A stretch of DNA of 64,000 bases from Magnetococcales bacterium (GTDB lineage: Bacteria > Pseudomonadota > Magnetococcia > Magnetococcales > JADGCL01). Below the pieces are notes generated by a model that saw nothing but the letters and a program-made list of their open reading frames with translations, did not search any database and was not told where the DNA came from. The stretch spans positions 50,216-114,215 of the forward strand of contig JADGCL010000001.1 in NCBI GenBank assembly GCA_015229005.1, written 5' to 3'. Of the stretch, positions 3,053 through 56,626 are shown piece by piece; within the stretch, counting starts at the first letter, position 1, and each line of letters begins with the position of its first letter. Both the position numbers and the translations under genes were made by a program.

Positions 3053-3454
3053 TCATGCTGTGAGATCGATGATGGAGCGCACCCCGTTGCCCTTCTCGTT
3101 GCCACCGGAGGCACTCTCGCTGGCGGGGGCTCTGACCGCGGCACTGAGAAAGAACTGTGTGACCGCCTGCTGTGTCTGGCTCACCCGTTCCTGTCCGGCC
3201 TCGACGGCCTCCTTGAGCGGAGAGGGCTTGGCGGGGCCGAAACCCGACCTTGTCCCTTCCTTGGCTCTTGCCCGCTCTTTGCGTTCACGTGTCTCGGTGT
3301 TGTCCGCCCCCTCCTTGGACTCCTGGACATTCACCGATGACGCCTGTTCCCCGTTGTTGGTACGAATATTCTCTGCCACCCTGGCATGGCTCGACTGCTC
3401 TTGCAACGGGTTGGAAATCCCGAGCAGACCGGTTGCCGGCAAGGAATTGATCAT
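3053..3454 (-). CDS. hypothetical protein (133 aa, charged/low complexity)
   Basis: The ATG is preceded by a strong GGAGGT 5 nt upstream on the minus strand. No family was recognised. Confidence 0.4.
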   Translation of the reverse strand: MINSLPATGLLGISNPLQEQSSHARVAENIRTNNGEQASSVNVQESKEGADNTETRERKERARAKEGTRSGFGPAKPSPLKEAVEAGQERVSQTQQAVTQFFLSAAVRAPASESASGGNEKGNGVRSIIDLTA

Positions 3455-3759
3455 GGCTCACCTCCGCAGCTTACACGTTACCCTGATCTCCTCATCGGCA
3501 GCACCTTCCCTGGGGTTGAGCCCTTTTCTCACCCCTGGGGCATTTTTTTCCCGAGGAGGCCGTGGCCCGCACGCATCCCCGTCGATCCGGACCGTAATGG
3601 GGAGATGCCCAACCAGACTGTGATAGGGAGAGGCCCAAGGCTGGGTGGGCCGAGTCGATTAATTGAATCCCTCCCGCGATTTCTTTATCCTTGCCGGGGG
3701 TGGCAGCGCATGGCCACCATTCCCCGATCGCCCCTGGCCCAACCTGACGGAACCCGCTT

Positions 3760-4413
3760 ATGCCCTTGGCCCTGTTCGACCTGGACAACACCCTCATTGC
3801 CGGTGACAGCGACTACCTGTGGGGCCGTTTCCTCTCCCAACGGGATGGCAGGGACGGTCCCGCCTATGAAATCAGAAACCGACAATTCCTCCGGGAGTAC
3901 GAACAAGGAAGCCTCGACATTCACGCCTACCTTGCCTTCCACCTGGGATATTTGGCCCGGAAAGAGATGACGCAGCTTCTCGAGTGGCGCCGGATCTTTT
4001 TGGAGGAGATCATCTCACCGCTGGTTCTGCCCAAGGGGGTAAGCCTGGTGGAGGAACATCGTCACCGGGGAGACACCCTGGTGATCATCACTGCCACCAA
4101 CCGGTTCGTGACCGAGCCGATCGCCGCCCTCTTCGGCATCGAGACCCTTCTTGCCACCGAGGTCGAGATGGTCGATGGCCGCATCACCGGGGTCTCTCCG
4201 GGGGTGCCTTGTTTTCGTGAGGGCAAGGTGACCCGTCTCCGGGCCTGGATGCAGGCCGCTGGTCACGGGCTCAGCGGAAGCCATTTCTACAGTGACTCCC
4301 ACAACGATCTCCCGCTCCTTGCCCTGGTGGAACGACCGGTGGTTGTCGACCCTGACCCGAAACTTGCCGATCACGCCAAACGTCGGGGCTGGCCGATTTT
4401 GAGCCTTCGTTGA
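3760..4413 (+). CDS. HAD-IB family hydrolase (phosphoserine-phosphatase-like)
   Basis: N-terminal LFDLDNTLIAGDSD is HAD motif I. VIITATNRF is motif II. YSDSHNDLPLL is motif IV. Confidence 0.8.
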   Translation: MPLALFDLDNTLIAGDSDYLWGRFLSQRDGRDGPAYEIRNRQFLREYEQGSLDIHAYLAFHLGYLARKEMTQLLEWRRIFLEEIISPLVLPKGVSLVEEHRHRGDTLVIITATNRFVTEPIAALFGIETLLATEVEMVDGRITGVSPGVPCFREGKVTRLRAWMQAAGHGLSGSHFYSDSHNDLPLLALVERPVVVDPDPKLADHAKRRGWPILSLR

Positions 4414-43154: not shown

Positions 43155-44111
43155 ATGTCGGACGTAATGATCGAGATGACGGAGATCAGCCGCTTCTTCG
43201 GTCCCACCCGGGCCCTGGCGGGGGTCAACCTCCAGGTTAAACGCGGCGAGGTGGTCGGCTTTCTCGGCCCCAACGGCGCCGGCAAGACCACCGCCATGCG
43301 CATCCTGGCCGGGATCCTCGCCCCCACCTCCGGCGGCGCCCGGGTCGCCGGGATCGACCTTCTCTCTGATCCGGTCGAGGCGAAGGCCAAGGTCGGCTAT
43401 CTCCCGGAGAGTCCTCCGATCTATGCCGACATGTCCGTCCGCGAATATCTTGCCTATCTGGCCTCTCTGCGCCGCGTCCCGCGCAAGCGCCGGCGGGATG
43501 CCGTCGACCGGGCCATGACCCGGTGCGGCCTGGATCACGTCGCCGATCGTCTCCTGGGCAATCTCTCCAAGGGTTACCGGCAACGGGCCGGGATCGCCCA
43601 GGCCATTGTCCACGACCCGCAGGTGGTGATCCTCGATGAACCTACTGTCGGCCTCGATCCCATCCAGATTCGGGAAATCCGTGAGCTGATTCGCAATCTC
43701 GGGGGGGAGCACTCGGTCCTCCTCTCCACCCATATTCTCCCCGAGGTGCAGATGACCTGCCATCGGGCCGTCCTGATCCACAACGGCACCATCGTCTCCG
43801 ACGACACCCTGGAGGGGCTGGAAAACCGTGCCAAGAGCGGTCATGAGCTCTTCGTCCGGCTGGCTCGCCCGCCCGAGGTCTCGGTTCTCAAGTCCCTTCC
43901 GGGCATCCGCCAGGTGGAGGCCCTCCGGGGGGGGTGGCGGATCCTCGTCGAGGCCGGCGCCAATCCGGCCGAGGCGCTGGTCAAGCGATCGGTCGAGGAG
44001 AACTGGGGGTTGAGCGAGTTGACCCCGGCCTCCCACTCCCTCGAAGAAGTCTTCGTCAATCTCACGACCCGCGAGCCGCAGGCGGTCGCTGTCCAGGAGA
44101 GTGCCCAATGA
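43155..44111 (+). CDS. ABC transporter ATP-binding protein (GldA-like)
   Basis: GPNGAGKTT, LSKGYRQR, LDEPTVGLD and STH are present. AGGAG RBS. The track ORF start at 42906 is an upstream extension. Confidence 0.85.
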   Translation: MSDVMIEMTEISRFFGPTRALAGVNLQVKRGEVVGFLGPNGAGKTTAMRILAGILAPTSGGARVAGIDLLSDPVEAKAKVGYLPESPPIYADMSVREYLAYLASLRRVPRKRRRDAVDRAMTRCGLDHVADRLLGNLSKGYRQRAGIAQAIVHDPQVVILDEPTVGLDPIQIREIRELIRNLGGEHSVLLSTHILPEVQMTCHRAVLIHNGTIVSDDTLEGLENRAKSGHELFVRLARPPEVSVLKSLPGIRQVEALRGGWRILVEAGANPAEALVKRSVEENWGLSELTPASHSLEEVFVNLTTREPQAVAVQESAQ

Positions 44112-44875
44112 AACCGATCGTTGCCATCGCCCTCCGCGAATGGCGGAGCATGTTCCTGTCGCCGTTGGCCTGGACCCTCCTGGCCGTTCTTTTCGCCATC
44201 ACCTCCTGGATGTTCAGCGCCGCGACGCGCCTGTACCAGATTCAGCAGATGCAGTTTCAGGCCTTCGGCGGCGGCGGGGCCTCCCTGACCGACTCGACGG
44301 TGGCGCCGATGTTGGGCAATGCCGCGGTGCTTCTCCTCCTGATCAGCCCCCTCCTGACGATGCGCCTCATCGCCGAGGAGAAGCGGCGCGAGACCTGGCC
44401 GGCGGTCGCCTCGTCGCCGCTTTCGCCGATGCAGATTCTATTGGGCAAGTATTTCGGCCTCCTGCTCTTTCTGGCCGTTACGGTGGGACTCCTCGCCATC
44501 CCGCCGCTCCTCCTCTTCGCGTATGGTTCCCCGGATGGCGGCCAGATCTTCTCCGGCCTCCTCGGTCTCTTCCTGGTCGCCGCGACCTTCGGCGCCGTCG
44601 GTCTTGCCGCTTCCGCCGCTACCGACAACCCCATCGTGGCCGCCGTCATCAGCTTCGGCGTCCTCCTCTCCCTCTGGATCGCCTCCTGGATGGGCGAGGC
44701 GGGGGGCACGGACACCGTCGACCAGGTGTTGGCCTACATCTCCCTGACCGGCCACTACGAGAAATTCCTGACCGGGGTCATCTCCAGCGCCGATCTGGCC
44801 TATTTCGTCATCGTCTCCCTTCTGGCCCTGGTCGCTGCGCGCTACCGGCTGATGGCCGAACGGGTCCGGGGTTGA
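44108..44875 (+). CDS. ABC-2 type permease (GldF-like)
   Basis: Multi-TM protein whose start MKPIVAIALREWRSMFLSPLAW is typical. ATGA overlap with the ATPase gene. Confidence 0.75.
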   Translation: MKPIVAIALREWRSMFLSPLAWTLLAVLFAITSWMFSAATRLYQIQQMQFQAFGGGGASLTDSTVAPMLGNAAVLLLLISPLLTMRLIAEEKRRETWPAVASSPLSPMQILLGKYFGLLLFLAVTVGLLAIPPLLLFAYGSPDGGQIFSGLLGLFLVAATFGAVGLAASAATDNPIVAAVISFGVLLSLWIASWMGEAGGTDTVDQVLAYISLTGHYEKFLTGVISSADLAYFVIVSLLALVAARYRLMAERVRG

Positions 44876-44905
44876 GCATTTTTTGCGACTGGGGAGATAT
44901 CGTCC

Positions 44906-46288
44906 ATGGAAATGAATCGTTCCACGCGCCTGAACTTCAGGACCCAGAACCTCGTTCTGGGGTTGTTACTGGCCGCCATCCTGGGGGTCGCGGCCTATGC
45001 CACCCACCGTTACCAGGTCCGCTGGGATCTGACCGCCAACAATCGCCACAGCCTCGCGGAACAGTCGGTCAAGGCGGTTCAGGCCTTCCCGGAGGGGGTG
45101 GCGCTCACCGTCTACGTCCAGGACAAGGGCGAACAGAAACAGGGAATCCTCGAACTCCTGGAACGCTATCGGGTGGAAAACACCAAGTTGACCATCCGGT
45201 TCGTCGATCCTGACCTCGACCCGGCTGCGGCCCGCCGCGAGGATGTCGCCGTCTACGGGACGGTGGTCCTGAGAAACGGCGAAAAGTCCGAAAAGGTGAC
45301 GGAGGTCACCGAGGAAAACATCACCAACGCCCTGATCCGTCTCTCCAAGGGGTCGGCAAAGGTGGTCAGGATGGTCTCCGGCCACGGCGAACACCCGTTC
45401 GAGGAGTCCGCCCCCGCTCCCGGCATGCCTGGCCAGCAGGCCAGCCGACAGAGCTACAACACGGTCGTCACCCTCCTCAAGGGGGAGGGGTATCGTGTCG
45501 AGAAGCTCAACCTGGCCGAAGTGGAGGCCGTTCCGGAGGAGACGGGGCTGGTGGTCCTGGCCGGGGCTCAGGGGCCTCTGTTTCCCGTCGAGGTGGAGAG
45601 GCTCACCCAGTGGTTCGGCAAGGATGGACGCCTCCTCCTGCTCCTCGAACCCGGGATCAACACTGGCCTGGAGCCCTTCCTCGCCGACCAGGGAATCACG
45701 CCGCTCGCCGGCACGGTCATCGACCCGACCGCCCGCCTCTTCGGCGCCGGGGTCACCACCCCCCTGATCACCCGATATGACGCCAGCCATCCGATCACCA
45801 AGGGGATGAGCGATGCCTCGTTCTTCCCGGAGGCCGTGGCCCTGGAGCTGCAACCGTCGGATTCCCGGAAGGAGGGTTCGCCGCAGCGGACGCGCCTCCT
45901 GACCGGGGCTGATCGCGGCTGGTTGGAGGTCGGTTCCCTGGCGGGGGGTTCGGTCGAGTTCAACGCGGGGGAGGACAAGCAGGGGCCTCTGCTCCTGGGG
46001 GTCGCCACCGAGGCTGAGAAGCGGCGTCTGGTGGTGATCGGTGACTCCGATTTCGCCGCCGATGCCTATGTCGACTTTTCCGGCAACAGCCGGCTCGTCC
46101 TCAACGCGGTCCGCTGGCTGGCCGCCGACGAAAATTTCATCGCCATCAAGCCGAAGCCGGTCACCGACGGTGGCCTCGTCCTCTCCGGTATCGACGCCAT
46201 CATCCTCTCCTGGGGGCTTGTGGCGGTGATCCCTCTCCTCCTCGTCGGGACGGGGCTCACGCTCTGGCTGCGGCGGAAGCGTCGCTGA
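44906..46288 (+). CDS. GldG-like ABC-system auxiliary protein
   Basis: N- and C-terminal TM anchors flank a large periplasmic domain, and the protein ends WLRRKRR. It follows the gldA/gldF-like genes. Confidence 0.7.
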   Translation: MEMNRSTRLNFRTQNLVLGLLLAAILGVAAYATHRYQVRWDLTANNRHSLAEQSVKAVQAFPEGVALTVYVQDKGEQKQGILELLERYRVENTKLTIRFVDPDLDPAAARREDVAVYGTVVLRNGEKSEKVTEVTEENITNALIRLSKGSAKVVRMVSGHGEHPFEESAPAPGMPGQQASRQSYNTVVTLLKGEGYRVEKLNLAEVEAVPEETGLVVLAGAQGPLFPVEVERLTQWFGKDGRLLLLLEPGINTGLEPFLADQGITPLAGTVIDPTARLFGAGVTTPLITRYDASHPITKGMSDASFFPEAVALELQPSDSRKEGSPQRTRLLTGADRGWLEVGSLAGGSVEFNAGEDKQGPLLLGVATEAEKRRLVVIGDSDFAADAYVDFSGNSRLVLNAVRWLAADENFIAIKPKPVTDGGLVLSGIDAIILSWGLVAVIPLLLVGTGLTLWLRRKRR

Positions 46289-46316
46289 ACGGCATCGGCT
46301 GAAGGAGGCATGCGCC

Positions 46317-47759
46317 ATGGTCAAAGGCTGGTGGGTCAATCTCTTCCTTCTCGCGGTTCTGCTTGCGGGGGGCGGGGGTCTGTGGTGGGCCGATCGTGAA
46401 GAGGCGGCACGCCAGGAGGCCGATACGGCCTTCCGCAAGGTCTCTTCCTGGCCGGTCGAGGCCCCGGTTCGGATGGAGTTTCGCGACGAGAAGGATGCCA
46501 TTGCCGTCCTGATCCGGGAGGGTGGCTCCTGGCGCCTGGCCGAGCCGGTCGCGGCCCCTGCGGACGAGGGGGCCGGGAAGCGGCTGGTCGAGGTTTTGCA
46601 GGCCACCTACGAACGGGTGGCGGCGCCGGCGCCGGTGGCGGACGTCGCCCCCTTCGGGCTGAATCCCCCGAAGGCCAAACTTTCCCTGGTCGACGACAAG
46701 AGTCAGGAACTCGTCCTTCTCCTCGGCGAGAAGAGTCCGACCGGGGGCAAGCGCTACCTGCGCATCGGCGAGGAGGGGCCGGTCGTGCTGGTCGACGAGA
46801 CGAGTGTCGCCGGCATGACCCAATCCCTGGACGAACTGCGTGACAAGCGGCTCCTGCCGGGCCTGACCGCCGATCGTGTTGCCGGCGTCACCCTGATCCG
46901 CGGGGAGGGTGTCCTGACCCTGGAGAAGGCGCAGGAGGGCGGGGGGTGGCAGCTTCTTTCGCCGTGGACCACGCCCGCCTCCGCGACCCGGGTCTCCGCC
47001 TGGATCGGCGGTCTGGTCGAGACCCGGGGATCCAGTTTCGAGGCCGTTTCCCCGCCGGCCAACCCTGATTGGCGCCTTGCCCTGACCGATTCGGCCAAGG
47101 CGATCCGCACCCTCGATCTCTGGCGGCGGGGGGAGCAGATCCTGGCCCGGGGGAGTGATTCTCCCGATGCCATGGTGCTTTATTCCTATCTTGGTCGCGA
47201 TCTCGACAAGAAGGCGCTGGAGTTGGTCTCTCTGGCTCCCTGGGAGACTCCGGACAAGGATCCAGAGTCCCTGGCTGTGACCCTGAAGGAAGAGACCCTG
47301 AAGAGTGACCCCAAGGAGGCCTCCTGGCAACAGCCGGGGTGGCAGGCGCTGCGTGATTTCCTCAAGCAGGAGGGACAGCAGGGGGTCGAACCCGAGGATC
47401 GGGGTCCCCCGTGGGTGAAGGTGGGCCTCGAGGGCTCCCGGGAACTCTCCCTCTGGAAGAGTGGGAAGGGGGATGAGGCGACCGCCTGGCTTGCGGTGAG
47501 TGACCGGCCTTACCACATTCAGTTGAGCCGGGCCCAGCTCATGGCCCTGGAGGAGGCCGTGACCCGCCTCTTTCCCTCTGCCGGGGGGGAGACGCCGCCC
47601 GTGTCCGACGGGGCCTCTGCCGCTGAGGAGCCGACCAGCGGCGAATCGCCGGCGACGACGGAGAGCGGCGCTCTCCCCGGGGAGGGGGAGAGGCTCCAGG
47701 TTGAGGAGATCCCGCCCGTCTCCTCCGGGGCCGATACGGCATCTCCCACTTCCCAATAG
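46317..47759 (+). CDS. DUF4340-like protein
   Basis: An N-terminal anchor is followed by a beta-rich repeat body. The position after the gldG-like gene is the usual context for DUF4340. AAGGAGG RBS. Confidence 0.55.
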   Translation: MVKGWWVNLFLLAVLLAGGGGLWWADREEAARQEADTAFRKVSSWPVEAPVRMEFRDEKDAIAVLIREGGSWRLAEPVAAPADEGAGKRLVEVLQATYERVAAPAPVADVAPFGLNPPKAKLSLVDDKSQELVLLLGEKSPTGGKRYLRIGEEGPVVLVDETSVAGMTQSLDELRDKRLLPGLTADRVAGVTLIRGEGVLTLEKAQEGGGWQLLSPWTTPASATRVSAWIGGLVETRGSSFEAVSPPANPDWRLALTDSAKAIRTLDLWRRGEQILARGSDSPDAMVLYSYLGRDLDKKALELVSLAPWETPDKDPESLAVTLKEETLKSDPKEASWQQPGWQALRDFLKQEGQQGVEPEDRGPPWVKVGLEGSRELSLWKSGKGDEATAWLAVSDRPYHIQLSRAQLMALEEAVTRLFPSAGGETPPVSDGASAAEEPTSGESPATTESGALPGEGERLQVEEIPPVSSGADTASPTSQ

Positions 47760-47917: not shown

Positions 47918-49363
47918 TCAGGGCGGGGAGACCTCCGGCGTCACCAGCGGTCCCACCTTGTCGAAAAGCGTGACCACGCCGTCGTCCCAGCCATCCCAGA
48001 GGAAATCGTCGGCGATGCCGTCGGCAATCAAGCGGAAGGCGTAGCGGGTCTGTTCCTCGTAGAAGGCACAAAAGGCCCCGGGACGATCCATTCCCCCGTT
48101 CATTTCGTGGGCCTCCGCCGGGCAGGGTGATCCACAGAAATGGCGGATGGCGCATCGCCGGCAGGGGTCGATGGTCTCTACCGTCCGACCCGTGACCCGG
48201 TGAAAGGCTGGACTGGTCAAGGCTGCATCCAGACCTCCGGCAAAGAGGTTGCCACCGCGAAAGGAGTCCAGACCGATAAATTCACTGCAGGGAAAAAGGT
48301 CGCCGTTGGCCGCCAGGGCGAAGAAGGCCCGACCACCACCACAGGGGGAGATGTCGCACATCAGCCTTCTCGCGGTGGGGGCCAGGATCGCGAGGAGGAT
48401 GTTGGCAAAATTGGCGACCACCAGTTTGCGTCCGCTCTGCCGGAAGAGTTCATGACTCCTCTCCAGTGCGGCGATGAACGGAGTTGCCGCCTCTTCGTCG
48501 GCCAGACGCACCTCCCGAGCCGCCGGCAGGGTGCATCGGGTCATGTTGAGCAGGCAGTTGGGAACCTGGCGTTCGTGGAGAAACTCCACCATTTGCGGCA
48601 ATTCGCTGGCATTTTCCCGGGTCACGGTTACGATAACGCTGTAGTAAGGGTAGCCAGCGAGGCGCTCCATTGCCTCCAGAACCTTTGCATGGACGTTGAG
48701 GTTTCCTGCCCAGGATTTTCGGGTTCGATGGGTCGTCTCGGCCCGAATACCATCCAGGGAGAGTCCGATGCTGACCCCCCGGGAGGTGAGAAAATCCACC
48801 GCCTCGCCATCCAGGAGGGTCGCATTGGTCTGGACGCCGAAATCGAACTCGTTGTTGTAAGCGGCAATGCCCGCAAAGAGCGCCTCCTTGTTGAGGAGGG
48901 GTTCGGCGCCGTGGAAGATGACCCTTGGCCGACGCGAGGGCGGCAGGGTCTTGGCAAAGTGGCCTTGCAGAAGACGCAACGCCTCCAACAGCTTCTCTCG
49001 ACTCATCTCCGTTCCGTGCCTGCGCATGGTTTGCGGGATGTAGCAGTAGGAACAGTCGAGATTGCATCGGTCCGTCGGATTGAAATAGACCGCAGAGGGC
49101 TGGAGGCCGAACCTCAGGGTTTGCATCTCTTCCTGGAACGATGCCCGCTTCTGGTGAAAGGAAGTCAGGAGTTCCCCTCCTTCCAGGGCGTCCGCCAGGC
49201 GATCCTTGTGAACCAGGGCCCAGAAGGCCGTATCGGGATCCACCAGTCCCATATAAGCTGGGTGACCGATGTCCAACGGCAACAGGGTCGGTCCCTCACC
49301 GGTGTTGAGATGTGATCCGCTTGGCCGGTTTCCCGCATCCCGGGAGGCGTGCGTCACGGCCAT
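47918..49363 (-). CDS. radical SAM/SPASM-domain peptide-modifying enzyme
   Basis: CNLDCSYCY is the CX3CX2C motif. The C-terminal CDISPCGGG...LFPCSEF...DPCRRCAIRHFCGSPCPAEA carries the SPASM auxiliary-cluster cysteines. About 100 aa precede the SAM cluster. Confidence 0.85.
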   Translation of the reverse strand: MAVTHASRDAGNRPSGSHLNTGEGPTLLPLDIGHPAYMGLVDPDTAFWALVHKDRLADALEGGELLTSFHQKRASFQEEMQTLRFGLQPSAVYFNPTDRCNLDCSYCYIPQTMRRHGTEMSREKLLEALRLLQGHFAKTLPPSRRPRVIFHGAEPLLNKEALFAGIAAYNNEFDFGVQTNATLLDGEAVDFLTSRGVSIGLSLDGIRAETTHRTRKSWAGNLNVHAKVLEAMERLAGYPYYSVIVTVTRENASELPQMVEFLHERQVPNCLLNMTRCTLPAAREVRLADEEAATPFIAALERSHELFRQSGRKLVVANFANILLAILAPTARRLMCDISPCGGGRAFFALAANGDLFPCSEFIGLDSFRGGNLFAGGLDAALTSPAFHRVTGRTVETIDPCRRCAIRHFCGSPCPAEAHEMNGGMDRPGAFCAFYEEQTRYAFRLIADGIADDFLWDGWDDGVVTLFDKVGPLVTPEVSPP

Positions 49364-49518
49364 CAGTGCCCCTTTCGCTCGGTCAGGATGTAATGGGAGA
49401 GCCCCACGCCGTCGGCGGCGCAGCTCTTACGGGTGGCGATGACCTGGTCCTTCCGGGGGGCACGATGTTCCGGTGAGGGATTTTTGAGCATTGTTTTTTC
49501 AGGGGAAACAGGGTTCAT
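49363..49518 (-). CDS. 51-aa candidate precursor peptide
   Basis: MNPVSPEKTMLKNPSPEHRAPRKDQVIATRKSCAADGVGLSHYILTERKGH. GGAGGA lies 4 nt upstream of the ATG. The stop overlaps the rSAM start (TGATG). The 132-aa track version would run through the riboswitch and terminator. Confidence 0.6.
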   Translation of the reverse strand: MNPVSPEKTMLKNPSPEHRAPRKDQVIATRKSCAADGVGLSHYILTERKGH

Positions 49519-49545
49519 GACATCCTCCGTGGTTGGGTGTTGCGC

Positions 49546-49594
49546 AAAAAAAAAGGCCCCAGAGGAGCGGTGATGACACACCCACTCCCCTGGG
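49546..49594 (-). terminator. riboswitch expression-platform terminator
   Basis: On the minus strand, CCCAGGGGAG...CTCCTCTGGG forms a 10-bp stem with one G-U pair, followed by GCC and T9. The 5' arm overlaps an alternative GGGACC/GGTCCC hairpin. Confidence 0.75.
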
Positions 49595-49625
49595 ACCTTT
49601 TTCCATGGGGTCCCGGAAACGGCGT

Positions 49626-49780
49626 CCTTGCAACGTCTTCTGACTTTCCGGATCAACCGCAGGTCCCGCGCCTTCCCGCCGGATTTTCTCCGGCAGTGGC
49701 TGACTCGCGTCACGCGGACTGCGTCCCCGGTCACAGCGGCGGGACCGTCACGGATTGGCACCGTGTTCCGTTCTGCAAGG
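49626..49780 (-). promoter_or_regulatory. cobalamin (B12) riboswitch aptamer
   Basis: The minus strand reads CCUUGCAGAACGGAACACGGUGCCAAUCCGUGACGGUCCCGCCGCUGUGACC...AGCCACUGCCGGAGAAAAUCCGGCGGGAAGGC...AAGUCAGAAGACGUUGCAAGG. The conserved GGUGxxAAUCC, CCCGCCGCUGU, GCCACUG and GGGAAGGC blocks and a B12-box-like AGUCAGAAGAC are present. A P1 helix CCUUGCA/UGCAAGG closes the aptamer. Confidence 0.85.
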
Positions 49781-49797
49781 ACCCCTGACCGGCCCCG

Positions 49798-49827
49798 ATT
49801 ATCCGCACAAACGGGGCATCAAGGCAA
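49798..49827 (-). promoter_or_regulatory. candidate sigma70 promoter TTGCCT-N18-GATAAT upstream of the riboswitch
   Basis: Hexamers and spacing were read on the minus strand. The -10 element ends about 17 nt before P1. Confidence 0.4.
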
Positions 49828-50047: not shown

Positions 50048-51706
50048 ATGACGAACTTGGGCGATTTGGAACATACCGTTCGCTATTTCCGGCAGATCCT
50101 GCTTTGGCCATTGCAACTCTTGCCCATGGCGGAGGAGGATGGTCGGCGTCATTGGCAGGTCCTGGAAGAGACCCAGGAGCGATCCGTGTGGCAACGGGTG
50201 GTCAATGAATTTGCCGACGCCAGCCGGGTCTCCCAGGAACAGTATTATAAAGAATTCGTGGTGTTCTTGCCGTATGTGCGGCGGTTTCTCTATGGTGAGA
50301 GCCGAGGTCCCTGGATCCATGATGAGAAGGATCCGGCCGGGGAGTCGGCGCTGAAGGTCTTTCGCCGCCGGGATGTCGCTGCCCTGCGCCTGGTATTGCG
50401 CACAGGAACGGCGCCGATCCTGCTGTCCGTCGATGGGGTCGAGTTGATCTTCTTCGACGACATCGATCTGGTCTTTCTCAAGGTCGAGATCAGCGCCACC
50501 GATCTTCTTCTGACAACCGTTCGGGAGATGCTCTACCGCTTCGGACGGGCCTATCCGACGAGTTGGAACGAGGCGGGCCAGGGAATCCATAATGTCCTCT
50601 CCGCAGAATGGTTGGGGACAGGGGGACAGGCGCTGGCGGCCTCGGATTCGGACAACCGGATGAAATTCCTGGCCTTCAGTTGCCAGCATCGGGCCCCTTG
50701 CACCTCGGCCCACTGGAGCTTTCTGCTTCAGCCCCTGGTCCCGGCGCCGGCAGTGGAAAAGGGATTGATCCGGTTTCATCAGGTGGAGTATCACCGGATA
50801 CCGATGATGGCCTATCTGGCGGTCGACGACCCCAGGAGCATCACCCGGGATACCTGGTTGCGGTTGGGCATGATCGCCTCGCTGCATCCCGACGAGCCGA
50901 TCCCCCGGAATGACCCCGATGTTTTCGGATTCGAGTCGCATTACTGTTATGATCGCTATTGGACCGATACCGAGGCCGGTCCGAACAGTCGGTTCCTCTG
51001 CAGCGGTCGGGTGCTGCTTGTGGTGGGGGATGCGCGGGAGAGTTATTTCATCAATGCCTACCGCGGGATGCTGGCCAAGTTTCGCCACCAGTATTTCATC
51101 GTCTTTCTCATCGCTCACCTCCATCGGGCTTCCCTCCTGATTTTTTCGGACCGCCTGGTGGACGCCATCCACGACCTGGATATTCGGCAGGGCAACTCCG
51201 TTCGGACCTTCCGCCATCGGATCCATTTGAGTTTCGAGACCTTTCTGCGGTTTACCCATCGCTATTGGTTCCACAAGATTTCGGAGCGGGATGATATTCA
51301 GTCCCTCCTTGGGCTCTGCGGGAAATGGCTGGGCAATGACAGTCTGTACGAAGAGGTCAAGGAAGAGTTGTGGGACATGAGCCAGTATCTGGACAGCGAC
51401 ATGCAGCGGCGGCAGTCGAAAACAGTTGTGCAGTTGACGGTGGTCACCGCTTTCAGTCTGATCGGAACGATCGCCACCGGCATTTTGGGGATGAACATCA
51501 TCGACGAAACGGGCGCACCCTTTTGGGTTCGCTGGGGCTACTTCTTCCTGACGGTGGTAGTCTCGGCAACGATCATGCTCCTCACGGTGACCAAATCACG
51601 GTGGCTGTGGGACATGATGGAGATCATCTCGGACAATCGGCTGTCGATGCGGGCACGACTTCGGCAAATCTTCCAGACCAAGGAAAACCCCGGGAAAACG
51701 CACTAG
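50048..51706 (+). CDS. CorA-like (GMN-motif) divalent-cation channel family protein with a long N-terminal domain
   Basis: The C-terminal TGILGMNIID lies between two TM helices, as in the CorA signature. The soluble region of about 450 aa is longer than in classical CorA. Confidence 0.6.
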   Translation: MTNLGDLEHTVRYFRQILLWPLQLLPMAEEDGRRHWQVLEETQERSVWQRVVNEFADASRVSQEQYYKEFVVFLPYVRRFLYGESRGPWIHDEKDPAGESALKVFRRRDVAALRLVLRTGTAPILLSVDGVELIFFDDIDLVFLKVEISATDLLLTTVREMLYRFGRAYPTSWNEAGQGIHNVLSAEWLGTGGQALAASDSDNRMKFLAFSCQHRAPCTSAHWSFLLQPLVPAPAVEKGLIRFHQVEYHRIPMMAYLAVDDPRSITRDTWLRLGMIASLHPDEPIPRNDPDVFGFESHYCYDRYWTDTEAGPNSRFLCSGRVLLVVGDARESYFINAYRGMLAKFRHQYFIVFLIAHLHRASLLIFSDRLVDAIHDLDIRQGNSVRTFRHRIHLSFETFLRFTHRYWFHKISERDDIQSLLGLCGKWLGNDSLYEEVKEELWDMSQYLDSDMQRRQSKTVVQLTVVTAFSLIGTIATGILGMNIIDETGAPFWVRWGYFFLTVVVSATIMLLTVTKSRWLWDMMEIISDNRLSMRARLRQIFQTKENPGKTH

Positions 51707-51982: not shown

Positions 51983-53047
51983 TCAGCCGCGTTCCTTGAT
52001 CCAAGCGGCGATCCCGGGGGGGACCTCCTTCTTGGAGCGACCACTGGTGAAGAGTCCGATGTGCCCGCCGCCGAAGGAGAGTTCCGAATAATCCTTGGAA
52101 CCGATGAGATCCTTCAGCTTGAGGGTGGAGGAGGGGGGAACCAGGTGGTCCTTGGTGGCATAGACGTTGAGAACCGGCATCGTGATCCGGGAAGGATCCA
52201 CCGTCTTGCCGCCGATCTTGAGGCCGCCCTTGACCAGACCATTCTGCTGGTAGAAAAACTTGACGAACTGCCGGAAGGCTTCACCGGCCTGGTCCGGACT
52301 GTCCGCGACCCATTTCTCCATGCGCAGGAAGTTCAGGAGGGTCTTCTGGTCCTCGAGGAAGTCGATCATCTTCATGTACTTGTGACCGTCCGAGAAGACC
52401 GAGCGCATGGAAGCGAAGGCGGTATTCAGCATGGTACCAGGCACATTGCCGACGGCATCCACCAGGGCGTCCACATCCATGCCCTTGGCCCACTTGCCGA
52501 AGAGATTCTCACCGGCATGGAAGTCGATGGGGGTGACGGTCAGCACGAGATTCCGGATCCGATCGGGATTGATCGAGGTGTAGCAGGTACTCAGGGTTCC
52601 GCCCTGACAGATCCCGAGCAGGTTGATCCGATAGAGCCCGTGACGCTCGCAGATTTCTTCCACGCAGTGGTGGATGTAGCTGTTGATGTAATCGTCGAGT
52701 TCCAGGAAACGATCTGCCCGATCCGGGTATCCCCAGTCGACGAGATAGACCTCGAGCCCTTCTTCCAGGAGGCCGCGGATGAGCGAGCGATCGGGTTGGA
52801 GATCGGCCACGTAGGGACGATTGACCAGGGCGTAGACCACCAGGACTGGAATCCGGTGGGGGGTCTCGACGAGCGGGCTGTACCGATAGAGGGTCATCTT
52901 GTCCTCATGGTAGACCGCGTCCTTCTTGCAGAGGCCGACATCGACCTCGCCGAGCTTTTCCAGCGCCTGAATACCCTTGGCGAACTTCTGATTGAATTGG
53001 ACCAGCTCCTGCGCTGCCTGGTCCGGTCTGATGGCGATAGGATTCAT
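51983..53047 (-). CDS. phaC: class III poly(R)-hydroxyalkanoate synthase, PhaC subunit
   Basis: The length (354 aa) fits class III. LLGICQGG is a lipase-box-like motif carrying the catalytic Cys. A PhaE gene lies next to it. Confidence 0.9.
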   Translation of the reverse strand: MNPIAIRPDQAAQELVQFNQKFAKGIQALEKLGEVDVGLCKKDAVYHEDKMTLYRYSPLVETPHRIPVLVVYALVNRPYVADLQPDRSLIRGLLEEGLEVYLVDWGYPDRADRFLELDDYINSYIHHCVEEICERHGLYRINLLGICQGGTLSTCYTSINPDRIRNLVLTVTPIDFHAGENLFGKWAKGMDVDALVDAVGNVPGTMLNTAFASMRSVFSDGHKYMKMIDFLEDQKTLLNFLRMEKWVADSPDQAGEAFRQFVKFFYQQNGLVKGGLKIGGKTVDPSRITMPVLNVYATKDHLVPPSSTLKLKDLIGSKDYSELSFGGGHIGLFTSGRSKKEVPPGIAAWIKERG

Positions 53048-53059
53048 CGCTGTCTCCCC

Positions 53060-54355
53060 TTATTCCTTGCCCTTGACTTTGATGGTTTTCCGGACGAGCC
53101 CCGCACTCTTCCCACCTTCACCGAGCTCAGCGGGATCCACCAGCTGGGCCTTCAGGAACTCGACTTCCTCCTGCAGGGCTTTGATCTGGGAGTCATAATC
53201 CACGCCGCCTTCCTTGGGCTGACTCTTCAGGGCGGCGAGCCCCTTCTTCAGTTCGGTTACCCCCAGTTGCTCCATATCATCGCGCAGGGAGCGCAACTGG
53301 TCCGACACGCGACCGAGACTCCGCACCTCCCGCTCCAGGGAGGTCATCCGCCGCCTGAGACCGTGGGCCACCTTGTGGGCGGCGTCCAGCTCCGAGCGAT
53401 TGGGAAGGTTCATCGACCCAAGATACTCGTCGATCATCGCCAGATTCTGGGCCTTGAGGCGATTCATCGAGTTCGAGAGCTTGGCGTTGGCCTCGGTGTA
53501 CTCCTCGCCGGCGATGGTCTTGGCGTGGGCCGAATCGGCACAGGAGACCCACAGATCGATCACCTTCTGCATGGTATCCAGCGGCTCGCCCTTTTCCGCG
53601 GCCTGGTTCAGACGCTTCTGCAGGGTCTCCAGGGCCAGCACCATCTCTTTGCCCTGCACCACCATCAACGCCTGCATCGCCTGCTGATACTCCATCGTCA
53701 GGCGGCTGATCTCCTTCATCCGGGTATTCATCTGGTTCACGGATGGAGGGGAGACGATGCTGAGAAAACGATTGACTCCGGCCATGGCCGGAACATCCTG
53801 CATGAACGGCTGCGTCAGGGTGGACATCGCCTGCAAGAACTCGCCGCCCGGAAAGGCCGGCATCGACGGCATTCCCATCCCGGAGAGTCCGGGCATCATC
53901 CCCGGCACCATCTTCGTCCAGTTCGAGAGCATCTCCTGATAGATCTTGGGGATTCCCGTCATGCCACCGAACATCGAGCCGTCTCCGCTCCACATGGACT
54001 TGGCCTGATCGATGAATTGGTTCAACCCCTTGGTCCAGTCTCCGGAGAGTTGACCGGCCTGCTGCATGGTCTGGAAGGCTTTCATCATGGTCTCGCCCAT
54101 CCGCATGAAGCCTTCGCCGGCGCCGAACATGTTCCGGAATATTGCCTGCTCTGGGGATTGGGCCGCCTGCCCCGGAGAAAGCAGGTTCATCCACTGGTTC
54201 ATCCCGTCACGCCAGAGATTTCCGGGCAGGGCCGTCCCGGACGTGCCCTCCATGGCCTTTCTGGCCACGGTCGCCCAGGTATTCCAGGCATTTTGCTGAA
54301 CGTCAGCCAAGCTGTTCAACCAATTCATGGTCATTTGTTGCGGGCTCTCAGCCAT
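53060..54355 (-). CDS. phaE: class III PHA synthase, PhaE subunit
   Basis: The N-terminus WLNSLADVQQNAWNTWATVARKAM resembles PhaE. The gene sits 12 nt upstream of phaC. The C-terminus is coiled coil. Confidence 0.75.
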   Translation of the reverse strand: MAESPQQMTMNWLNSLADVQQNAWNTWATVARKAMEGTSGTALPGNLWRDGMNQWMNLLSPGQAAQSPEQAIFRNMFGAGEGFMRMGETMMKAFQTMQQAGQLSGDWTKGLNQFIDQAKSMWSGDGSMFGGMTGIPKIYQEMLSNWTKMVPGMMPGLSGMGMPSMPAFPGGEFLQAMSTLTQPFMQDVPAMAGVNRFLSIVSPPSVNQMNTRMKEISRLTMEYQQAMQALMVVQGKEMVLALETLQKRLNQAAEKGEPLDTMQKVIDLWVSCADSAHAKTIAGEEYTEANAKLSNSMNRLKAQNLAMIDEYLGSMNLPNRSELDAAHKVAHGLRRRMTSLEREVRSLGRVSDQLRSLRDDMEQLGVTELKKGLAALKSQPKEGGVDYDSQIKALQEEVEFLKAQLVDPAELGEGGKSAGLVRKTIKVKGKE

Positions 54356-54388
54356 GTCGCCTCCCTCAGGTTGCCGGTGGCTTGCCGG

Positions 54389-54745
54389 TCACTCCTTTCC
54401 CGCTTTACTCATCGCGAGAAACGCTTTCAGGTTTTTTTCCACCAACTCGTTCAGTTCCAACTTGCTCTGGGTGAGCGTTTCCATGGCCTGTTTCGCGTGG
54501 CCAATCATCAGTTCCCCCAGTTCCGAGGCCATATCCGCCTGATCGACCATGGCCTCCTTGACGTCCTTGGCGCCACTGATCTTGCGGATTTGTTTGACCC
54601 CGGCACTCATGCAGCTCCCGGCCACTTCAAGCTGTTGCTTGGCCAGGTTCTGCACCGTTCGGTCGTTGATCTCCTGGAGCCGGAGCATGGAGTCCAGCAC
54701 CTTTTTGGTCACATCGGTCATCTGCTCGGCCAGCTTGCTGTCCAT
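54389..54745 (-). CDS. phaP: phasin family protein
   Basis: A 118-aa helical protein with a phasin-like sequence (VLDSMLRLQEINDRTVQNLAKQQLE...). It lies within the pha cluster. Confidence 0.7.
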   Translation of the reverse strand: MDSKLAEQMTDVTKKVLDSMLRLQEINDRTVQNLAKQQLEVAGSCMSAGVKQIRKISGAKDVKEAMVDQADMASELGELMIGHAKQAMETLTQSKLELNELVEKNLKAFLAMSKAGKE

Positions 54746-54804
54746 GGGGCAACTCCCTCAGAGTGAACATACCGGGATTCGGCGGAACGCTTGTTCAGAT
54801 GGTC

Positions 54805-54949
54805 GAAAGCGGTCCATCCGTGGACCCTCTCAGCCCGAGAGAGGCAAAACCCAGTTCTGCCCCTCCTTCCAAATTCAGCAGGCCATGCCGCCTCGTTGAA
54901 TTTGACCGGCCATCCCAGGCCGGTGCAGCCCGCTCATCAACGGCCTGCT
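54805..54949. repeat. structured repeat, copy B (phaR-phaP spacer)
   Basis: Homologous to 31226-31371, with 79/109 identities in the ungapped core. The helices are retained with compensatory changes. Confidence 0.65.
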
Positions 54950-54956
54950 GTGCTGC

Positions 54957-54979
54957 GCTGCAATATATTGCATTGCAGC
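54957..54979. promoter_or_regulatory. TGCA-rich palindrome (candidate PhaR operator) upstream of phaP
   Basis: The element reads GCTGCAATATATTGCATTGCAGC. It contains a perfect 14-bp palindrome TGCAATATATTGCA (54959-54972) and 8-bp outer arms GCTGCAAT/ATTGCAGC. Confidence 0.35.
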
Positions 54980-55023
54980 ATAAGGTAGTGCTACCCGACT
55001 GTCAAAGCTTTTTTCCGGATCCC

Positions 55024-55506
55024 TCACTCAGGGCTGGAACTTCCTTTCTGGTTGCCTTCCGGAAAGAGGCTTTCCTGCCAAGTCTTCCAAAGGGCGAAGT
55101 GGCGTTCGGCCATTTCGTGGATGATGGCCAGTGGGGTGGCTGCGGTGGCGGCCAGGGGAGCCTGCAACTGCTTGCGAAAGACCGCCTGCTGGTCGACGAA
55201 GAGCAGGAGACTTTTTTCCAGATAGTCGGTCAGGCTCGATTGAAGGGCGTCCCCCTGGAAATGGATGAGTCCCGACAGAAGGGCATTGCTGAACAGCGGC
55301 ATGCCTTTCTCCTCCTGCTCACTGATGATCTGGAGCAGGATGCCCCGGGTGATGTCCTCGCCGGTCTGATTGTCCACCACCTGGAAGGGGGTCTGGGCCA
55401 GGACCAGGGCCCTCACTCCCTCCAAGGTGATATACTGACTCGTGGCCGTGTCGTAGAGGCGCCGGTTGGGGTATTTCTTGATGATCCGCGGCTCTTCCAT
55501 TCCCAT
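55024..55506 (-). CDS. phaR: polyhydroxyalkanoate synthesis repressor
   Basis: IKKYPNRRLYDTATSQYITLEGV...ITRGILLQIISEQE is the canonical PhaR N-terminal region. Confidence 0.9.
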   Translation of the reverse strand: MGMEEPRIIKKYPNRRLYDTATSQYITLEGVRALVLAQTPFQVVDNQTGEDITRGILLQIISEQEEKGMPLFSNALLSGLIHFQGDALQSSLTDYLEKSLLLFVDQQAVFRKQLQAPLAATAATPLAIIHEMAERHFALWKTWQESLFPEGNQKGSSSPE

Positions 55507-55805
55507 CCCTTGGTCACATGACGACGGCCGAGGGCCGAGGTCCCCACTTCCGATACGTTCCTGAAATTTCTTTCCGCAATTTGTTCCTGCGATCCAGCCC
55601 CGGCACGACGAACCCCCGTCCCGGCTGCAGAAGACCCGTTTTGCAGGGCGTCCAGGAGATCCGACGGACCCCCCACGCCGGGGCAGGAGGCGGACAATTC
55701 CTCGACTGACCGCCCCCTGCCTGATGTTCCGGAGTCACCGACGACCCCGTCCCCCCGGTCTCGTTCTCCGACCGGAGCAACCGAACGGACGGGGGTGATG
55801 CCGGA

Positions 55806-56552
55806 TCAGTGGTGCATCCACATCCCGCCGTTCACGTCGAGATTGACGCCGGTGATATAGGCGGCATCATCGGAAGCGAGGAACTTGACTGCGGCAGCGA
55901 TCTCGCGGGGTTCGGCCAGGCGCTGCATCGGGATCCCCTTCTTGATGCCTTCCATCACCTTTTCCGGGATGGCGAGCATCATTTCGGTCGCCGTATAGCC
56001 GGGGGAGATGCAGTTGGCGGTAACCGCGTTACGGGCGCCTTCCTGGGCGATGGACATCGTGAAGCCGTGCATGCCGCCTTTGGTGGCCGCATAGTTGCTC
56101 TGACCGAACATGCCCTTCTGCCCGTTCATGGAGGCGATGTTGATGATCCGGCCCCAATTACGATCCAGCATACCGGGGAAGAACTGACGGGTGACGTTGA
56201 AGACGCTGTTCAGGTTCACCTGGATGACCAGATTCCAGTTCTCGACCGGCATCTTCTTCAGGGTCGAGTCCCGGGTGATGCCGGCGCAATTGACGAGGAT
56301 GTCCACGGGCCCCATCTTCTCTTCGACGGCCTTGGCCATCTTTTCGCAGGAGGCGAAGTCGGAGACGTCGGCCTCGAAGAGTTGGACATCCAGCCCTTCG
56401 GCCTTGAGCGGCTTCTGCCAGCCGTCGATCTTGTTTGCCTCGAAGGAGGCATAGGTGCTACCGGTCTTGTACCCGGCCTTGGCCAAAGTGTGGACGATCT
56501 CGGTGCCAATACCGCCAACGCCGCCCGTCACCAACGCTACACGCTGTCCCAT
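55806..56552 (-). CDS. phaB: acetoacetyl-CoA reductase (SDR)
   Basis: VALVTGGVGGIG, NCAGIT and YAATKGG are SDR motifs. Start at MGQRVA, preceded by GGGAGAG; the track ORF starts at 56576. Confidence 0.9.
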   Translation of the reverse strand: MGQRVALVTGGVGGIGTEIVHTLAKAGYKTGSTYASFEANKIDGWQKPLKAEGLDVQLFEADVSDFASCEKMAKAVEEKMGPVDILVNCAGITRDSTLKKMPVENWNLVIQVNLNSVFNVTRQFFPGMLDRNWGRIINIASMNGQKGMFGQSNYAATKGGMHGFTMSIAQEGARNAVTANCISPGYTATEMMLAIPEKVMEGIKKGIPMQRLAEPREIAAAVKFLASDDAAYITGVNLDVNGGMWMHH

Positions 56553-56626
56553 CTCGTTCTCTCCCTTGTAATCCATTTGGCTTTGATTCAGACCGCTTCA
56601 AACTCGACCTTCCGAGAAGATCCGCT

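Follow-up and report, generated by a model that had tools for sequence, protein, structure and literature searches.

A cbpA-cbpB pair of precursor peptide and radical SAM/SPASM enzyme behind a cobalamin riboswitch in a Magnetococcales bacterium

What is encoded by a 51-codon open reading frame (ORF) that lies just upstream of a radical S-adenosylmethionine (SAM) enzyme gene, and what might the enzyme do to its product? The question is raised by the minus strand of a 64,000-nucleotide stretch of Magnetococcales contig JADGCL010000001.1 (positions 50,216 to 114,215), which we call the window and whose own positions are used throughout. An earlier reading of the letters, made without database searches (the sequence-only reading), had singled out the ORF at 49363–49518 as a candidate precursor peptide of the adjoining radical SAM/SPASM enzyme. 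The ATG-initiated ORF exists as described there, and its minus-strand translation is exactly the quoted peptide of 51 amino acids (aa). By itself it is little evidence, because 113 ORFs of 30 aa or more fall wholly or partly within the 12 kb of GC-rich DNA examined. Judged by profile matches and gene order, the ORF is cbpA, the precursor gene of the two-gene CbpA/CbpB module (TIGR04164/TIGR04163), an already known class, and it is highly probable that this identity, expression repressed by B12 and a role of CbpA as the substrate of CbpB hold together. The features on which the identification turns are these:

49363–49518, minus strand: cbpA precursor peptide gene (TIGR04164), 51 aa if begun at Met1, or 42 aa in the annotated form, which starts at Met10 (49491).
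49372–49443, minus strand: conserved CbpA core, residues 26–49, VIATRKSCAADGVGLSHYILTERK, delimited by the hidden Markov model (HMM) match, by column counts over 81 cores and by divergent members from a profile search.
49420–49422, 49393–49395 and 49390–49392, minus strand: codons of Cys33, His42 and Tyr43, respectively.
47918–49363, minus strand: cbpB, peptide-modifying radical SAM/SPASM enzyme of 481 aa (TIGR04163, PF04055).

The peptide matches the curated NCBIfam equivalog TIGR04164, 'modified peptide precursor CbpA' (cobo_pep), with 45.0 bits against a cutoff of 35 (E = 5.5e-12), and this is its only NCBIfam match; residues 26–49 align to positions 1–24 of the 25 in the profile. The residues of the family's core motif are all present (R30, C33, G37, G39, L40, H42 and Y43), the tail after Tyr43 has the modal family length of 8 aa, and the two substitutions in this copy, Thr where ILM usually has Met and Glu in place of Asp, are found in other members too. 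The adjoining enzyme matches TIGR04163, 'peptide-modifying radical SAM enzyme CbpB' (rSAM_cobopep), with 669.9 bits against a cutoff of 375, and base 49363 is common to the cbpA TGA stop and the cbpB ATG (TGATG, a 1-nt overlap). The proposal of a small precursor-type peptide coupled to a radical SAM/SPASM enzyme was thus correct. GenBank already gives the pair the same names in this metagenome-assembled genome, 'modified peptide precursor CbpA' for the 42-aa peptide (MBF0141906.1) and CbpB for the adjoining enzyme (MBF0141905.1). RefSeq has the gene symbols cbpA/cbpB elsewhere too, a Methylovirgula megaplasmid being one example. The locus agrees with the family in gene order, core motif, riboswitch and naming; the family is itself bioinformatically defined, and nothing structural sets this locus apart from it. 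Because the family is already curated and the pair already annotated in the source genome, the locus is a member and not a discovery. The sequence-only reading had found that the peptide fits no class it could recall; it was right that this is not a SCIFF, PqqA, MftA or streptide peptide, but the peptide does belong to a class, the curated CbpA family already named in GenBank. What the present analysis establishes is the identity of CbpA, the anatomy of the locus, its conservation and its B12-linked context.

Conservation was followed in CbpB relatives, which were found in at least 589 stretches of species-representative genomes; 80 of these were fetched as loci L001–L080, and they span Pseudomonadota, Thermodesulfobacteriota, Myxococcota, Planctomycetota, Chloroflexota, Verrucomicrobiota, Acidobacteriota, Nitrospinota and others. 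Cultured carriers of the pair include Aromatoleum toluolicum, Blastochloris sulfoviridis and Sedimenticola hydrogenitrophicus. A motif scan placed a short cbpA ORF directly upstream of cbpB in 77 of the 80 loci. Of the other three, inspection showed a GLAHY variant of the peptide in L068, while in L026 and L075 the contig breaks off; every locus with enough upstream DNA thus has cbpA. The sequence-only reading had named absence of the short ORF from related loci as a reason to abandon the proposal, and the ORF proves to be conserved. Nucleotide entropy over the core was 0.60, 0.38 and 1.40 at codon positions 1, 2 and 3, which indicates purifying selection in the cbpA frame. In L068 the GLAHY peptide (3750–3860, Ser to Ala) lies inside a cbiC-...-cbpAB-cbiX-like-cbiM operon.

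Aligning the short ORFs found upstream of homologous enzyme genes, a check that the sequence-only reading had suggested, located the invariant residues. The sole conserved unit of the peptide is a C-terminal block, [VI]-I-A-x-R-[KR]-x-C-x3-G-x-G-L-[STA]-H-[YF]-[IV]-L, and in the wider pattern, which takes in divergent members, its end reads [IV]-[LM]-[M...]-[D/E...] with a tail rich in Lys and Arg. Over the 81 cores on which the conservation counts rest, and in the divergent members as well, Arg30 (position -3 relative to the Cys), Cys33, Gly37 (+4), Gly39 (+6), Leu40 and His42 are invariant. Position 43 is Tyr in 78 cores and Phe in 3, position 41 is Ser with Thr or Ala tolerated, and C+2 is Ala in 66, Pro in 7, Thr in 6 and Ser in 2, so that the core reads C-x-[A/P/T/S]-x-G (49408–49422, minus strand, in the window); two extra residues can be inserted between the Cys and G-x-G-L. 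Of the C-terminal residues pointed out earlier, Cys33 and His42 are indeed invariant and Tyr43 is Tyr or Phe, but Asp36 is not conserved: at this C+3 position Asp occurs in 26 of the 81 cores, Lys in 22, Glu in 9 and other residues in the remainder. From Chloroflexota to Pseudomonadota the 24 residues of the core hardly vary. When 1.84 billion proteins were searched with an HMM profile, 196 clusters came back, all of 25–134 aa; in every match listed the core sits at or near the C-terminus, and none is joined to a larger domain. GLTHF and GLAHF occur as well, in divergent members from the database. Some CbpA peptides carry two cores in tandem (L027 2078–2464, L029 3483–3968 and L038 3771–3968; proteins P0123–P0125, P0134 and P0135), each with its own VIAxRK and CxxxGxGLSHYILMD and with linkers of 8–15 aa, and these complete units support a self-contained unit of about 24 aa.

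The part ahead of the block behaves differently. In the 77 loci with a callable start it measures 4–33 aa (median 11), cannot be aligned, and is Lys-rich in some lineages and rich in Pro, Ala, Thr and Gln in proteobacteria. The basic, Pro-rich N-terminal half had been read as a leader; with such lengths, no sequence conservation and a conserved part that begins only at V26, that reading does not hold across the family. As the alignment has it, the N-terminal half is lineage-specific and unconstrained, and the V-I-A-x-R-K segment before the Cys is the likelier candidate for the recognition element.

Upstream of cbpA the window holds the following:

49613–49824, minus strand: cobalamin riboswitch aptamer RF00174, 75.1 bits against a gathering score of 31.5 (E = 8.5e-18), matching the full model (1–189).
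49546–49604, minus strand: intrinsic terminator of the riboswitch expression platform, a long GC-rich hairpin followed by nine U.
49524–49528, minus strand: Shine-Dalgarno (SD) sequence GGAGG, 5 nt upstream of cbpA Met1, found by reading the sequence and by an SD scan.

The aptamer is the sole Rfam match in the window. The minimum-free-energy fold of the terminator has a stem of about 23 bp, then UUUUUUUUU, and a terminator scan marked a terminator-like site, GCTCCTCTGGGGC plus CTTTTTTTTT. This terminator begins 9 nt downstream of the aptamer and precedes the cbpA ribosome-binding site, a position that points to a transcriptional OFF switch; on this anatomy the cbpA-cbpB bicistron would be transcribed only under cobalamin scarcity. 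Of the 80 loci, 61 have an RF00174 aptamer immediately ahead of cbpA and on its strand; those without one are mostly truncated or inside cob operons. Translation of cbpB would be coupled to that of cbpA through the TGATG overlap; of 75 loci, 53 show the cbpA stop overlapping the first candidate start of cbpB, as ATGA or TGATG, and in 62 the two are no more than 10 nt apart.

Where does translation of cbpA begin? The sequence-only reading had allowed that it might initiate elsewhere than at Met1, and the annotation pipeline (PGAP) does start the gene at Met10, giving 42 aa; however, the SD scan found GGAGG 5 nt before Met1 and none at Met10, and the closest relatives, the Magnetococcales loci L001 and L002, have SD-preceded starts 25–26 aa before the VIA block, which match Met1. 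We therefore favour the 51-aa product with good, though not full, confidence, and the PGAP start is probably a mis-call. It is unlikely, on the same evidence, that the product of this CbpA system begins at Met10 with the first nine codons as an untranslated leader, even though the 42-aa form is the deposited protein, an exact-sequence look-up found no 51-aa form in the protein collection, and N-termini of merely 5–12 aa before the VIA block in many family members imply that a short N-terminus is functional. The whole conserved core is retained from either start.

Three parts of CbpB itself can be placed on the window:

49109–49282, minus strand: putative N-terminal domain resembling a RiPP recognition element (RRE; RiPP, ribosomally synthesized peptide that is post-translationally modified), residues 28–85, three strands and two helices in an AlphaFold2 (AF2) model.
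49043–49066, minus strand: radical SAM CX3CX2C motif (C100, C104, C107), invariant in an alignment of 42 sequences.
48068–48358, minus strand: SPASM region with eight invariant Cys (C336, C341, C359, C401, C404, C410, C414 and C432).

The radical SAM domain matches PF04055 with 68 bits; SPASM (PF13186) scores 20.8 bits, slightly below its cutoff of 21.5, but homologues carry PF13186, and the region could be aligned with those of anSME and CteB. Two further Cys, C270 and C277, are also invariant among the 42 sequences and fall outside the known cluster motifs. Homologues form 2,472 clusters at E ≤ 1e-30, and identity stays at about 60–70% across distant phyla, unusually high for a RiPP maturase. 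The AF2 model (predicted local distance difference test, pLDDT, 83.5; predicted TM-score, pTM, 0.85) places a beta3-alpha2 unit ahead of the barrel, which is suggestive of an RRE-like, putatively peptide-binding domain. Among solved folds, Foldseek ranked CteB best (E = 1e-18, 460–477 aligned columns), followed by anSME (E = 1e-16, TM 0.8 on target) and, further down, TigE, ChlB and SuiB; a sequence search of the PDB gave the same order. An alignment of 460–477 columns includes the N-terminal peptide-binding domain of CteB. From this architecture, the translational coupling and the invariant core, CbpA is very probably the substrate of CbpB. The enzyme would bind V26-I-A-x-R-K31 as a strand and modify the adjoining invariant core, C33-x3-G-x-G-L-S-H-Y43.

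What modification would this be? The sequence-only reading had left the chemistry open, and we agree; the candidates can be ranked, with a Cys thioether first, then a C-C or C-N crosslink on the His or aromatic residue, then an anSME-like oxidation of the Cys, then something else. Our tentative first choice, by analogy with CteB and PapB, is one intramolecular thioether from Cys33 to a residue in G-x-G-L-x-H-[Y/F]. It heads the list because the invariant Cys lies N-terminal to the invariant stretch and because the closest HMM (PapB) and the closest fold (CteB) both belong to thioether formers. CteB and CbpB share a radical SAM and two-cluster SPASM architecture over nearly the full length, with a small conserved substrate peptide encoded just upstream in both cases; on the other hand CbpA has one Cys where SCIFF has six, SCIFF lacks a B12 link, and the SCIFF maturase HMM gives CbpB 80.9 bits against 425, which places it outside SCIFF/ranthipeptides (TIGR03973/TIGR03974). 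PapB, of the freyrasin type, is the best non-self HMM, and its substrate PapA shares with this copy of CbpA a Cys donor with an acidic residue downstream (C33...D36); CbpA has a single motif instead of the repeated CX3D, and at 126.7 bits against 340 CbpB is no PapB. A PapB-like Cys-Asp thioether through Asp36 was rejected as a family feature, with Asp or Glu at C+3 in only 35 of 81 cores. Ser41 is unlikely as an essential site, Ala or Thr being found there. Chemistry on the Tyr hydroxyl, of the pyrroloquinoline quinone (PQQ) or mycofactocin type, was judged unlikely as well, Phe being tolerated at position 43; this tolerance excludes phenol-oxygen chemistry and leaves ring or C-beta chemistry. 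Speculative, and not likely on present evidence, is a modification of the invariant C...G-L-x-H-[Y/F] core as yet undescribed for radical SAM/SPASM enzymes, for example a Cys-to-His or Cys-to-aromatic link, in a housekeeping peptide that would serve as intracellular cofactor or chaperone for cobalt or corrinoids under B12 scarcity.

Somewhat unlikely, though the strongest competitor of the thioether, is a C-C or C-N crosslink on His42/Tyr43, either an H-Y-I or Y-I-L cyclophane or a dynobactin-like link from His-N to C-beta, with Cys33 left as a free thiol, for example as a metal ligand. The invariant His followed always by an aromatic residue would fit ring chemistry without a phenol hydroxyl, a free Cys together with His would be apt for binding cobalt or a corrinoid in a module linked to B12, and the best HMM neighbours of CbpB include DynA (112 bits) as well as YhhB, FxsB, AmcB and GrrM (73–88 bits), which form cyclophanes. 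Against this stand the top HMM and the top fold, which are those of thioether formers and not cyclophane formers, and an absolutely invariant Cys is not known to have a role in cyclophane (triceptide) substrates. The aromatic-X-X likeness (H-Y-I, Y-I-L) to triceptides and dynobactin is a trivial motif, and the triceptide maturase models score 73–88 bits on CbpB against cutoffs of 310–445; CbpA differs by its invariant Cys and single motif, and a B12-riboswitch context is not known for those families.

We consider it improbable that CbpB oxidises Cys33 to C-alpha-formylglycine, as anSME would, or makes another change to the Cys short of a crosslink. The formylglycine motif of sulfatases is C/S-x-P/A-x-R, which the start of the core, C-x-[A/P]-x-G (Ala in 66, Pro in 7), recalls; anSME is the second-closest solved fold, and the extra upstream Cys of the CbpB SPASM region aligns with an Aux-I (auxiliary cluster I) ligand of anSME. 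However, where the sulfatase motif has its Arg (+4), 81 of 81 CbpA cores have Gly; CbpB reaches 92.2 bits on the anSME model (TIGR03942), whose cutoff is 349; an N-terminal peptide-binding domain of the kind predicted for CbpB is missing from anSME; and the substrate here is a peptide of 35–55 aa, not a sulfatase.

Neighbouring ORFs were clustered all-against-all over the 80 loci. Besides CbpB, no neighbour family occurs in more than 11 loci, and the only recurrent neighbours are cobalamin or cobalt genes: CobB/CbiA, CobT, CobS, CobU, CobC, CobA/O, CbiB, CbiF, CbiM, a CbiO-type ATPase, CbiD and BluB lie above or near their HMM cutoffs, and CbiX-like and CbiC-like proteins are sub-threshold. 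One arrangement reads cbiB-cobO-cobB-cbpA-cbpB-cbiM-...-cbiO-cbiD; in another, a divergent riboswitch pair faces cbpAB one way and cobC-U-T-S the other. A second cobalamin riboswitch back-to-back with that of cbpA was seen in L014, L016, L019, L051, L054, L055 and L065 (about 3270–3510, minus strand) and in L009 (2448–2647, minus strand), and it drives an opposite-strand cobC-cobU-cobT-cobS operon where the genes are identifiable (e.g., L016, L019 and L051). Because an opposite-strand gene closely follows cbpB in 22 loci, the module is self-contained, and no recurrent protease, exporter or immunity gene adjoins cbpAB among the 80 loci.

The product may be an intracellular accessory of cobalamin or cobalt supply, judged by repression through the riboswitch, by the placing of the pair inside cob/cbi operons, by the absence of recurrent export or processing genes and by the near-invariance of 24 aa across phyla; we hold this role to be evenly balanced between right and wrong. 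Since no protease or exporter is conserved and the block is nearly identical, the product would most likely stay in the cell as a whole modified peptide, where it may handle cobalt or a corrinoid through Cys, His or acidic ligands and not act as an antibiotic. A B12-independent replacement function is less supported than a role in supply. PqqA/PqqE and MftA/MftC offer a partial parallel, with a tiny, highly conserved peptide, an adjacent radical SAM/SPASM enzyme, a housekeeping-type distribution and no exporter. Unlike them, CbpA has no E...Y or C-terminal GVY and its module no further conserved tailoring genes; the E-x3-Y, GVY and K...W motifs of PqqA, MftA and streptide are all missing from CbpA, MftC scores 56 bits on CbpB against 265, and PqqE is not among the top 25 HMM matches. 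That the whole 24-aa block is conserved, and not two residues, argues for a peptide product and not for an excised small molecule.

Several points weigh against this account of CbpA, from its chemistry to its role. Our full-text literature searches found no experiment or paper on CbpA/CbpB. The N-terminal 94 aa of CbpB have no Pfam or RRE match at E ≤ 10, so the RRE assignment comes from the structural model. The non-self HMM scores (PapB 126.7, DynA 112, anSME 92.2, YhhB, FxsB and QhpD about 87 each, with cyclophane and thioether formers next at about 73–88 bits) all lie far below their own cutoffs, and homology does not discriminate the chemistry. In the alignment to anSME, that enzyme's extra Aux-I ligand falls on Cys336; should Aux I have all its ligands, a mechanism like that of CteB, in which the thiolate coordinates the cluster, would be less obvious. 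The AF2 model of CbpA alone, from an 8-sequence alignment, is disordered (pLDDT 62, no secondary structure), and it thus speaks neither for nor against a beta-hairpin. A verified B12 or cobalt gene of nine families (CobB/CbiA, CobT, CobS, CobU, CobC, CobA/O, CbiB, CbiF and CbiM) lies within 4 kb in only 28 of 81 loci (the 80 and the window), and in the present window none was seen near cbpAB.

Quite improbable is a secreted RiPP (an antibiotic, a signal or an extracellular scavenger of corrinoids or cobalt) that is released after leader cleavage. Most characterised radical SAM/SPASM RiPPs are exported, and expression under B12 scarcity could fit scavenging; yet protease, exporter and immunity genes do not recur beside cbpAB, no conserved cleavage motif precedes the core, the variable N-terminus is as short as 4–7 aa, and near-identity of the block across phyla is atypical of antimicrobial RiPPs. 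Very improbable, in turn, is that CbpA is no substrate at all and acts as a partner or regulatory subunit of CbpB, or as an upstream ORF feeding ribosomes to it, while CbpB works on a corrinoid or other small molecule. The very frequent stop/start overlap (53 of 75) and the strong B12 context, which would fit an enzyme of corrinoid chemistry, are what such a reading could draw on; it is opposed by conservation at the amino-acid level with drift at third positions, by tandem duplication of the whole core, by the RRE-like, radical SAM and SPASM architecture whose closest folds are peptide maturases, and by the fact that an upstream ORF would need no invariant residues. The idea that the true gene is the 132-aa ORF at 49363–49761 (minus strand), which the sequence-only reading had rightly called implausible, has next to no chance despite an open frame with a GTG start, because the riboswitch and the terminator precede cbpA and this ORF would start within the aptamer (49613–49824) and run through the terminator (49546–49604), and its product has no Pfam match, is not in the protein collection by exact look-up and has an upstream extension unconserved in other loci.

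The surroundings of the pair in the window are of other kinds. Divergent from it, at 50048–51706 (plus strand), lies a gene whose 552-aa product resembles CorA at its C-terminus, GMN motif included (Pfam 27.5 bits, against 27). GenBank calls the protein 'hypothetical', and the gene has no riboswitch of its own; as a cobalt-channel partner the protein was rejected, no homologue adjoining cbpAB in the other 80 loci. A polyhydroxyalkanoate cluster follows at 51983–56576 (minus strand), with class III PhaC, PhaE, phasin, PhaR and acetoacetyl-CoA reductase, all above NCBIfam cutoffs. Convergent with cbpB, at 43158–47759 (plus strand), are a GldA-like ABC ATPase (286 bits, below the equivalog cutoff), a candidate ABC-2-type permease, a GldG-like protein (weak match) and a 480-aa protein without a family match; this set is unrelated to B12. 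Outside the window, 72,556 plasmid records yielded a single cbpAB, that of Methylovirgula sp. HY1 plasmid pHY1 (L081, 6804–8383); pqqA-pqqD-pqqE is a few kb away from it, and a search with nhmmer turned up no cobalamin riboswitch there. Mobility was rejected as a cause of the high conservation, that sole plasmid being a non-mobilizable megaplasmid of 278 kb.

For the annotation of this genome, the gain is confined to a likely start-codon correction, Met1 (51 aa) over Met10 (42 aa). For the family, the neighbouring accessions TIGR04159/60 date from release 13 or earlier (TIGRFAMs paper, 2013), and CbpA/CbpB has probably stayed uncharacterised for more than ten years. It is a large, well-defined family under a cobalamin riboswitch, often in cob/cbi operons, which makes it a reasonable experimental target, and the conservation map can guide the choice of residues for mutation: Arg, Cys, Gly-x-Gly-Leu and His are invariant, Tyr to Phe and Ser to Thr or Ala are tolerated, and Asp36 and the N-terminal half count as dispensable. 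Knowing how CbpB acts on CbpA, and why the product would be made only at low B12, could bring to light an accessory step of cobalt or cobalamin supply that has gone unrecognised and, if that proves true, a vitamin-supply peptide would be a new functional class of RiPP, one that serves neither warfare nor signalling.

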